Below, in pieces: positions 48,402 to 50,714 of a stretch of DNA of 64,000 nucleotides; the stretch's first letter is position 1, and each line of letters begins with the position of its first letter. The position numbers and the translations under genes were made by a program. Where the stretch lies: contig CAWGRW010000009.1 in NCBI GenBank assembly GCA_963825135.1, positions 1,664,001-1,728,000 on the forward strand. The letters run 5' to 3'. The notes beneath the pieces were generated by a model. The model was not told the origin of the DNA. It saw only the letters and a program-made list of their open reading frames with translations, and did no database searches. The DNA comes from an uncultured bacterium (GTDB taxonomy: Bacteria; Desulfobacterota_D; UBA1144; Nemesobacterales; UBA2774).

Positions 48402-49382
48402 CTAGGAAAATACCCTGCCGAAAGGATCGACCTGCGATTTGTCTTCATTTACGGGAACAACGAGCTTGTTGTCCCTCCTCTCGATCCTTATTGTCCCGTC
48501 CTTTCTCCGTGTGGCAATGAACTGCGTCCCGCTGGTCTCGCCGGATATCCTCTGGAGTATGCGGGGATAGTTCTTTGAGCCGATGAAGATCGAGTGTATG
48601 CACACGCCTAATTTTTTTGCCCTCCCCCGTTCTTCGAGCACGTCGCAATCGCCCGAGGTCGGGATGCCGTCCGTAATAAACAGTATGTGCTTGTTCCTGA
48701 GCCCTCGCCCCCTGAATTCGGTCAGAGCGTCCTTCAACGCGTCTTCGTAATTCGTGTTTCCCGAACACTCGGTCTTGGAGGCGAGCTCCAGCATCCACTG
48801 GTAATCCCTGGTGAAGAATTTGGAGTTCCTCTTGTATTTATACGAGCGGTGGTTGAATTCCACATAGCCGACCATCATCTTTTTCGCCCTGGCGAGCTCT
48901 ACCACTCCCCTCACGACGGACGACGACCATTCGCTGTACACGCCCATCATAGACGTGCTTACGTCCCTGAGGATCGCTATCTCGCCTCCCATCATCTCTT
49001 TTTCCCGTTTATGTACCCTCGGGAGAGTCGGCGTGGTGTACTCGGACCAGAACATTACCTCAAACGGATCGACGTCCTCAACTTCGTCGAAATAATTCAT
49101 CCTCTTCCATGTCCTCGGCATTCCCCCGGGATGGGGGGCCCTCAAGGCTATGCTCCTCTGGAAATTTCCTTCGAGGACTTTCATTATTACCTTTACGTTG
49201 TCCGCGGACTCGAGGTTCCTTTTGCCGCCTATCCAGTAATCCTCTTCGTCGCCCGGGTCCGGGGACTTGCTTGCGAATACCTTGCTCGTCTTAGGGGGCT
49301 GCTTCTCGTTTCTCTTCGTACCGTCGTCAGAGAGCTGACCCTCGGGGTCAGACGGAATGTTCATATCCTCGGGCGGAGCCAT
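48402..49382 (-). CDS. von Willebrand factor A domain protein; frame is open upstream to the A11 run at 49575-49585
   Basis: MIDAS DVSTSM, GNTNYEDAL, LFITDG. Confidence 0.85.
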   Translation of the reverse strand: MAPPEDMNIPSDPEGQLSDDGTKRNEKQPPKTSKVFASKSPDPGDEEDYWIGGKRNLESADNVKVIMKVLEGNFQRSIALRAPHPGGMPRTWKRMNYFDEVEDVDPFEVMFWSEYTTPTLPRVHKREKEMMGGEIAILRDVSTSMMGVYSEWSSSVVRGVVELARAKKMMVGYVEFNHRSYKYKRNSKFFTRDYQWMLELASKTECSGNTNYEDALKDALTEFRGRGLRNKHILFITDGIPTSGDCDVLEERGRAKKLGVCIHSIFIGSKNYPRILQRISGETSGTQFIATRRKDGTIRIERRDNKLVVPVNEDKSQVDPFGRVFS

Positions 49383-49549
49383 GGAGCTCTCCTTCTGGAT
49401 GTTTTCCTTGAGTTCTTTTAAGGCTTGAAAGAAGGTCTTTCGGGCTTCGGTAAGCTGGTCCTGGGATTCTTTTTTCCCCCGGTCATCTGGGGAATCCTGT
49501 TTCTGCTCTTGGGGGGCGTCGTTGTCAAACTCTGATGACGGCTGCGGCT

Positions 49550-50512
49550 CTAGCTCGCTCCCCCTGTCCCTGTCTTTTTTTTTTTGGACGTGAGGTCCTC
49601 GATAATCTGGTCGAGCTGCAGAAACACCTCTTCGGGAATTCGGAAAGCAGTCATGTATTTCAGCGCTTTTAAGTCCTCAACCGTGCACGCGTCCCTTCCG
49701 TTGAGAAGAGCGTGCGCCCTCATTATCTTGAGTGACTTTACGAAGAACGTTCTGTCGGAAATGAGGGAATTGGTCTCGTTGCACCCATAGTCCTCTATGA
49801 GCGTCTCGACGAACCTTGCGAGCCCTTCCTGGACTTCGAGCGGTATTTCAAGACTGCCCAGTTTTTTGTAGTAATCATCGAACACTTCCCTGCTGACCCT
49901 TGCAGGTACATGGTATTCAAGGGGTCTTTGAGTATATAGCTTGATGACCTCCCTTGCCTCGTCCCATTTCTTCCCGTATGACAGGCCCTGCGCGTTTATC
50001 TGTAGGACGAACCTGTCGAGGTTGGCCGGGTCGAGGGGCTCGTTATAGTACTCGTCCGCCGTCGGGTTGGAGGTAGCGATTGCGGTCAAAAGCGGTATGT
50101 CCTCGTCAAAGAACTTTCTTTCGTTAAGAATCCTGAGGAGTACGTTCAGCGATTCGCCCGGAGCCCTGGATATATCGTCCAGGAGGCAGATCTCGGCTGT
50201 CAGAATTCCGCCCTTCACAACCTTTTGTTTTATCACTTCGCCGGTATCGGTGATTTCTTTAGAAATGACCAGGTCCCCGATCAGCTCCGAGAGCCTGGTG
50301 TCCCTGTGAAGCTGGTAGAAGAAGAATTTCAACTGTGCCGCTCCCGAGACGATTTCGGCGAGCATTGTCTTGGCCGTCCCGGGCGGTCCTTCCACATAGA
50401 TATGCTCTCTGGCTATTATGCCGAGGAGGAGCGATATCTTGACCCCCTCGTGTCCGATAACCAATTTATCCATTTCTTCTTTCAGAGCTACGAATGGATT
50501 CTGTGATGTCAT
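49550..50512 (-). CDS. MoxR/RavA-type AAA+ ATPase
   Basis: Walker A GPPGTAKT, Walker B CLLDDI, LLRILNER, ATSN, LDRF, ISDR. Confidence 0.88.
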   Translation of the reverse strand: MTSQNPFVALKEEMDKLVIGHEGVKISLLLGIIAREHIYVEGPPGTAKTMLAEIVSGAAQLKFFFYQLHRDTRLSELIGDLVISKEITDTGEVIKQKVVKGGILTAEICLLDDISRAPGESLNVLLRILNERKFFDEDIPLLTAIATSNPTADEYYNEPLDPANLDRFVLQINAQGLSYGKKWDEAREVIKLYTQRPLEYHVPARVSREVFDDYYKKLGSLEIPLEVQEGLARFVETLIEDYGCNETNSLISDRTFFVKSLKIMRAHALLNGRDACTVEDLKALKYMTAFRIPEEVFLQLDQIIEDLTSKKKKTGTGGAS

Positions 50513-50714
50513 TATCTGGTATTGCCTCCGTAGAATTCCTTACGCTATGGGATAATTGTACATAAGCGGGTTTTTTTTTGCAATAATTACCGCCCGGATG
50601 CATGTAAGCGGAGTTCTCGTGATCCGGCAAGCCGGAATCGAATTCCTGTCATTTTCAAAAATTCCTTAAATATGATAAGTTTCTAGCCTCGGCAAATCCA
50701 ACGAGGAAAAACAG

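Follow-up and report, generated by a model that had tools for sequence, protein, structure and literature searches.

A single gene of an uncultured bacterium of the phylum Dadabacteria very probably gives rise to two proteins, a 320-amino-acid (aa) MoxR-type AAA+ ATPase and a 703-aa form in which the same ATPase continues through a linker into a VWA domain. The gene occupies the minus strand at positions 48402 to 50512 of the window, the stretch of 64,000 nucleotides (nt) that was analyzed (assembly GCA_963825135.1, contig CAWGRW010000009.1, positions 1,664,001 to 1,728,000). Its halves lie in different reading frames and meet at a run of 11 A's, and slippage of RNA polymerase at this run is, in our assessment of the sequence evidence, the likelier origin of both products.

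The minus strand reads TCC AAA AAA AAA AAG ACA GGG ACA GGG GGA GCG AGC TAG across the junction. Frame 0, the ATPase open reading frame (ORF; 50512-49550, 320 aa), continues through the run and meets TAG seven codons later (49552-49550). The -1 frame is free of stops from 49676 to 48404, and its first 64 codons after the A-run lack ATG, GTG and TTG. The letters and coordinates thus agree with what the original prediction had read from this DNA: an A11G run followed by a frame-0 stop after seven codons, a start-less -1 frame of ~64 codons leading into the VWA ORF, and a GAGGA 10 nt before the run (49600-49596). One added A creates a continuous ATPase-linker-VWA frame of 703 aa; one A fewer, or two more, gives 328-329 aa. 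The A11 run (49585-49575) is the sole A/T run of 11 in the genome of 3,128,702 bases, which has none longer, two of length 10 and 25 of length 9.

Orthologs were compared across 120 genomes of the phylum, with a homolog cut-off of E<=1e-40. The ATPase gene was present as a single copy in 117 of them, including genomes of 0.8-1.1 Mb; G032, G034 and G056 had no match at this cut-off, and in G005 and G116 the contig ends before the junction, which left 115 readable junctions. All 115 carried at least nine A's (9-12) at the junction. Relative to the ATPase, the VWA half was in the -1 frame in 94 genes and in the +1 frame in three, each of the three being a singleton one A shorter than its kin; the two halves share one frame in the other 18, of which one is error-ridden. 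Run length is fixed by lineage: A11 occurs in 27/31 genomes of lineage f1, with the same frame break, and A10 in 36/37 of f8 and 17/18 of f9. Orthologs therefore show the conserved poly-A with a frame break that had been proposed as a check. Counts of junction features omit two loci, L100 (error-ridden) and L037 (an N after the run).

Between the run and the first start codon, the DNA bears the mark of coding selection. Among nine ungapped close orthologs, differences in codons 9-64 of the -1 frame were distributed 30/19/167 over the three codon positions (167/216 at third positions), which marks the start-less linker as a protein sequence evolving in the -1 frame. A predicted linker helix is common to frame-broken and in-frame genes. 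In 54/96 genes of the -1 type, a -1-frame stop abuts the start of the run; therefore, the change of frame must occur on the run. Cross-genome conservation and the coding selection on the linker support the earlier proposal of a chlD-like recoding site joining the ATPase and VWA halves. The run appears to sit where the ATPase fold ends: in the predicted model of the in-frame ortholog P0001, the last ATPase helix spans residues 300-305, and low confidence or disorder sets in from residue 311, at the lysines of the run.

The original prediction had regarded uninterrupted fusions among the orthologs as fatal to recoding. In-frame fusions do exist, but the condition was too strict, as these fusions keep both the run and early stops in the other frames, and they therefore support the recoding model. 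Stops lay within 15 codons in both other frames in 36/37 in-frame genes, against backgrounds of 39% and 51% within 12 codons.

The run extends beyond the phylum. A10-11 was present in 17/31 non-Dadabacteria genome loci, all with an intact Walker A motif and at a GC content of 51-63%. The carriers are Tectomicrobia, Nitrospinota-labelled and Poribacteria-labelled genomes and their kin; their genes are mostly in frame, and nine of ten run-bearing genomes outside the phylum have one copy. Outside Dadabacteria the -1 state was seen in Entotheonella TSY1 and DD2, in G218 and in a metagenome clade (L308-L312). Metagenomes supplied 80 further loci, 11 of them without a junction, and at least nine A's were present in 68/69 readable junctions, some of which may repeat genomes. 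The run encodes KKKK, KKK, QKKK, QKKN, SKKK or RKKK and covers all three phases. Because the residues differ by phase, though AAA makes up only 0.31-0.79 of the lysine codons elsewhere in the gene, the run is kept as DNA, not as protein. In-frame Tectomicrobia genes read CGA AAA AAA AAA in 11/11 cases. On a tree of 82 rows, from which 14 distant or eukaryotic rows were excluded, in-frame and -1 states replace each other 13 times, or seven times when six suspect singletons are removed. As side observations, Entotheonella DD2 (L128) has the whole -1 gene duplicated in tandem, both copies reading AAA AAA AAA TAG; and among 31 Tectomicrobia-like metagenome loci, seven contigs have their first base 46-65 nt 5' of the start codon, a pattern that assembled transcripts might show. 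In two of these seven (L242 and L264) the run is one A longer than in their kin, which breaks the frame, versus 0/24 of the others (post hoc Fisher p=0.045), a lead for slippage and not evidence of it.

The remaining 14 of the 31 loci, from SAR324 and Lambdaproteobacteria, have no run, and in all of these SAR324-type cases the genome has a long gene and a separate short ATPase gene. In 13 of them the long gene, with a diverged Walker A, adjoins the short one; in the fourteenth the two are on different contigs. The short gene stops 23-26 codons past the FRxP motif, and 23-24 codons past it where the two genes adjoin; the slip product would extend 23-31. Within the SAR324 phylum the gene was found in 18/88 genomes; 16 of these have at least two copies, and in the remaining two there are pieces of the long and the short gene. 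The Walker A of the long copy reads GEPG[CS]AK in 12/12 cases where it is visible, and the copy forms a long branch, so that the placement of long versus short genes on the tree carries a long-branch warning. The two-gene form shows that the family wants both products.

How would one gene yield both? Slippage is favored because the shortest run matches the threshold of the polymerase: the minimum was nine in 136/136 junctions, and bacterial RNA polymerase slips efficiently from 9 A/T (PMC5009743; this and the papers cited below are represented by their accessible parts). The original prediction had named a dnaX-type A_AAA_AAG signal, which is present in the window, but the comparison does not support this signal as stated. 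At least nine A's were found in 130/130 junctions and A_AAA_AAG in 45/130, so the heptamer was rejected as an invariant of the site. Conserved stimulators were likewise rejected, GAGGA or GGAGG lying within 25 nt upstream in 33/130 junctions, and a 3' hairpin showing no enrichment (z of +0.1 in the window; z<-2 in 6/46 sampled loci).

The off-frame stops of in-frame genes point the same way. They often arise from disfavored codons (GTA-G, p=0.03; CCT-GA, 0.10; CTA-GA, 0.02) and hold one position across V, L, M and I. A stop in the frame that a -1 shift never enters was present in 13/13 genes of f7 versus 5.3 expected, and in 5/11 of Tectomicrobia versus 0.6; the synonymous-redraw simulation behind these expectations treats kin as independent and serine codon boxes as interchangeable, and is a guide only. 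Near stops in both other frames are the layout of Thermus dnaX, in which a tRNA for AAG has been linked to slippage (PMC5009743). This genome has tRNA-Lys(CTT) as well as tRNA-Lys(TTT), and tRNA-Lys(CTT) was also found in 18/22 other genomes. Avoidance of AAG at the third lysine (13/13 in-frame phase-0 genes) was dropped as proof of slippage, as AAA may also be the better codon to shift on in organisms that have the AAG tRNA.

Several observations weigh against this account, and some of them speak for a -1 ribosomal frameshift on A_AAA_AAA or A_AAA_AAG, alone or together with slippage, which we regard as a rather unlikely source of the same two products. The A_AAA_AAA heptamer is present in 130/130 junctions. 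Nothing more than a -1 ribosomal shift is needed to account for the -1 and in-frame states, which are the only ones fixed in lineages; the +1 state is never fixed and appears in the three singletons only. Lineage f9 has A_AAA_AAG in 17/18 genes, and no tRNA-Lys(CTT) was found in the five genomes searched, which are the classical ribosomal conditions. The closest precedent, fs-chlD, is described as ribosomal in the accessible part of PMC9227772, and SD-like (Shine-Dalgarno-like) pairing of -5.9 kcal/mol lies upstream in the window. A ribosomal shift leaves unexplained why runs are never shorter than nine though seven would suffice, why its stimulators (an upstream SD and a 3' hairpin) are unconserved, and why in-frame genes hold a stop in a frame that such a shift never enters; in addition, the AAG tRNA is present in most lineages. 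The streamlined f9 genomes (G101-G119; 0.8-1.1 Mb) keep the gene, and the mechanism may differ by lineage.

Other points bear on slippage itself or on the retention of the site. The sole contig from an RNA library (Illumina) over the junction, from a relative ~87% alike, is gap-free and has the genomic run length, which attests presence only; contigs hide minority forms. The double off-frame stops could be relics of repeated flips, kin not being independent, and only 1/13 genes of f7 have their second off-frame stop within 10 codons, versus 10.3 simulated. The two-gene state of SAR324 is one evolutionary event, not fourteen. Second, run-less long copies occur in three Entotheonellaceae genomes (L211/L237 in G121, L236 in G233 and L238 in G230); their Walker A is altered (G[AP]PGCAK), and no separate short gene was found in these three genomes at E<=1e-40. 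The flanks of the G121 copy look mobile. Finally, P0065, known from its protein only, is fused, with an intact Walker A and no KKK, and fused protist homologs lack a lysine run at the junction.

Three further explanations can be set aside more firmly. Phase variation in DNA, whereby the run changes length in replication and cells switch between short-only and long-only states, is very improbable: 6/115 genomes are one A off their kin (L019, L031, L057, L059, L090 and L100), as are a few metagenome contigs, but run length is constant within lineages (f1, f8, f9), the gene is near-universal and single copy even in genomes of 0.8-1.1 Mb, and SAR324 keeps both products at once. We give as little credence to two separate, coupled genes in which the VWA protein starts at its own ATG (49382) and the run is incidental. 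A good SD-like AAGGAG stands 6 nt before this ATG, and f1, f2, f6, f8 and many in-frame genes of f7 retain the Met residue. It is absent from f5 and f9, however, the SD-like text is not conserved, and the first start codons of the -1 frame range from codon 0 to 131 across genes; moreover, the 64 codons 5' of the ATG are under -1-frame coding selection, the conserved helix there is common to in-frame fusions, and two genes would leave the run unexplained. A homopolymer sequencing error, raised as a possibility in the original prediction, or a recently broken gene can practically be excluded, for although long A runs are error-prone and single deviating assemblies exist, dozens of independent assemblies share run length and break (as in the 27/31 f1 genomes above), runs of 9, 10 and 11 alike end in -1 through compensating differences downstream, an Illumina contig of a relative ~87% alike crosses the junction gap-free, and the downstream frame is intact in every gene examined. 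Cross-genome conservation, coding selection in the linker and the stop at the start of the run therefore dispose of assembly error, a pseudogene and two independent genes.

In the mechanism we favor, RNA polymerase would slip on the run of 9-12 A's to produce a mixed pool of mRNAs, translated into the ~320-aa ATPase and the ~703-aa long form. For this gene, mRNAs with 11 A's (also 10, 13 or 14) would encode the short ATPase and those with 12 (also 9 or 15) the long form; in in-frame orthologs, the same slip would generate the short form, as in Thermus dnaX. In NorQD, CbbQO and CobST, a MoxR hexamer is engaged at its pore by the VWA partner (PMC13036017; bioRxiv 10.64898/2026.10.09.757910). On that precedent, short and long subunits may share a hexameric ring in which ATPase subunits outnumber VWA domains, and the VWA on its tether may grip a client protein through its MIDAS, an adhesion site dependent on metal ions, while the ring remodels the client or loads a metal cofactor; the long, flexible linker would let the VWA reach the pore. 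By this analogy recoding may set subunit stoichiometry, and retention in genomes of 0.8-1.1 Mb suggests a core target.

We tentatively extend this into a general proposal, which we think somewhat less probable than slippage itself: that a multi-phylum family of MoxR-VWA chaperones, near-universal in Dadabacteria and kept even by their 0.8-Mb marine genomes, sets its ratio of motor to adaptor by stimulator-free polymerase slippage, with a frame that can flip freely and make either product the default, with run length and frame acting as an evolvable stoichiometry dial, and with the site lost only on duplication into short and long copies. If true, a second AAA+/VWA family would have arrived independently at the chlD solution, and few chromosomal slippage sites in bacteria would be as widely conserved as this one. 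To our knowledge, few families are known with productive recoding in stable, non-mobile bacterial genes; the present gene is single-copy and belongs to the core of an entire phylum, and is found also in Tectomicrobia and at least three other lineages. Its -1, in-frame and two-gene versions are natural controls, making testable both the choice between polymerase and ribosome at a bare poly-A site (f9 versus f7 or Tectomicrobia) and the need in MoxR function for a VWA tether on a minority of ring subunits. Standard gene calling misreads about four in five of these genomes as an ATPase and a truncated VWA gene, and "polishing" of the run would erase a real signal.

Coordinates of the gene, its motifs and its candidate signals in the window
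Feature	Position	Strand	Remarks
MoxR-type AAA+ ATPase, frame-0 ORF, predicted short product of 320 aa	49550..50512	-	Pfam bpMoxR (1e-20), AAA_5, AAA_3, AAA_lid_8
Walker A, GPPGTAKT	50366..50389	-	G42 and P44-T49 invariant in 46-row alignment
Walker B, CLLDDISR	50165..50188	-	DD replaces the usual DE, family-wide
LDRF motif	50009..50020	-	D166, R167 and F168 invariant
A11 run, putative slip site	49575..49585	-	Followed by G at 49574; end of folded ATPase domain
GAGGA, 10 nt 5' of the A-run	49596..49600	-	Unconserved; probably Glu-Asp codons
TAG closing the short product	49550..49552	-	Arises where the long frame has an NTA-G codon pair
Third-frame TGA	49525..49527	-	Would close a 328/329-aa short product if the mRNA had lost one A or gained two
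-1 frame, acidic linker and VWA, 390 codons; C-terminal part of the predicted 703-aa product	48402..49574	-	Natural in-frame fusions have a homologous C-terminal half
Start-less linker, 64 codons	49383..49574	-	Coding selection in the -1 frame
Conserved predicted linker helix, DQLTEARKTFFQALKELKENIQ	49395..49460	-	5' of the first start codon
AAGGAG, 6 nt, ATG (49382): possible internal start, 326-aa VWA-only product	49380..49394	-	Not universal
VWA domain	48519..48983	-	MIDAS-like DVSTS (48965-48951), T of SGNT (48764-48753), D of ITDG (48677-48666)
Sigma70-like promoter match	50555..50583	-	9/12, consensus match only

The LLDD Walker B is present in short, long and two-gene forms of the family, and ATPase activity is predicted; LDRF is presumably the arginine-finger motif. 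Pfam VWA, VWA_2 and VWA_3 match the C-terminal half, in which the MIDAS residues D204, S206, S208, T274 and D302 are invariant (47 rows), and a fold search with the VWA returned generic VWA domains only. The internal AAGGAG and ATG in the linker could add the VWA-only product in some lineages. An A9 run (50571-50579) lies between the -35-like and -10-like hexamers of the putative promoter, and the spacer length could vary. The gene looks monocistronic because it is flanked by a divergent Na/alanine symporter gene and a convergent mltG. In Dadabacteria only, mltG/proB follow the gene; nothing among the neighbors that could be a client gene was common across phyla (56/129 extracted ORFs scanned).

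Judged by sequence, the proteins form an unnamed MoxR-VWA family that is neither RavA nor ChlD and that uses the strategy of fs-chlD and dnaX. Membership of the broad MoxR type is indicated by the Walker A and B motifs, Pfam matches over the cut-off, a helix-2 insert, a relocated lid, best folds to 2r44 and RavA, and a VWA partner with MIDAS residues; the P0001 model has a beta-hairpin at residues 79-100. The nearest solved structures, CHU_0153 (2r44) and RavA, are 22-24% identical. The label "RavA/ViaA-like" given earlier did not hold up: the RavA model NF010054 scores 64.8 bits against a cut-off of 681, RavA has 498 aa against 320 here and aligns over the AAA+ part only, and no separate ViaA-type gene was found, the VWA being encoded in the ATPase gene itself, as its second half (VWA_CoxE, 24.5 bits, below the cut-off of 26.4). 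ChlD was rejected as well, as the window protein has no PF01078 match and TIGR02442 scores 28-49 bits against 779; no ChlI, BchI or CobS chains were among the PDB matches of the family profile. CobN/ChlH (PF02514) was not found in this genome, which is 94% complete, and was found in 5/14 control genomes; the protein is therefore probably not a chelatase. A MoxR-vWA-beta-propeller system (PF20030) was considered, bpMoxR being the best Pfam match, and rejected, with no propeller family in the 56/129 extracted neighbor ORFs that were scanned (E<=1e-8). Fused homologs P0124, P0126, P0128, P0132, P0136, P0145 and P0150, some of them EukProt/MMETSP protists, have ATPases 44-53% identical and junctions free of a lysine run, and several have N-terminal extensions that by eye resemble organelle-targeting peptides. 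P0176, P0179, P0198, P0205 and P0210 form a more distant clade of ~600-aa ATPase-VWA fusions (31-38% identity). We found no description of this family or slip site in the literature, with subscription papers and part of the PMC3711429 supplements outside the scope and a listing there possible.

The closest known system is fs-chlD, which according to the accessible parts of PMC3711429, PMC9227772 and PMC5009743 likewise places AAA+, linker and VWA in one gene, has a poly-A at the end of the AAA+ part and makes short and long subunits. Its signal is lost where a separate short gene exists, and some carriers are without a large chelatase subunit (PMC9227772). Poly-A cassettes from fs-chlD gave 10-63% shifting, increasing with run length (PMC3711429). 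Our gene differs in its ATPase family and lacks a conserved 3' structure, whereas most fs-chlD signals reportedly contain one. From dnaX, too, a single gene, come AAA+ ring subunits of two kinds, one of them extended at the C terminus, and orthologs are in or out of frame; in Thermus thermophilus the polymerase slips at 9 A/T, whereas E. coli uses a ribosomal shift on A_AAA_AAG (PMC5009743, PMC3711429). The Thermus gene shares with ours the near stops in both other frames and two lysine tRNAs. However, dnaX encodes a clamp loader, an unrelated protein, while our gene extends into a VWA adaptor and its frame flips repeatedly within phyla. The SAR324/Lambdaproteobacteria form, whose ATPases are 45-57% identical to that of the window, has the same short ATPase and long ATPase-linker-VWA, but as two genes, with no A-run and a diverged Walker A in the long copy. 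Finally, RavA-ViaA, NorQ-NorD, CbbQ-CbbO and CobS-CobT resemble our family in pairing a MoxR-type ATPase with a helix-2 insert and a MIDAS-type VWA partner (accessible parts of PMC13036017 and bioRxiv 10.64898/2026.10.09.757910). In those pairs the VWA protein is the product of a separate gene; here, with no linked client genes, it would be tethered by recoding to a fraction of the ATPase subunits.

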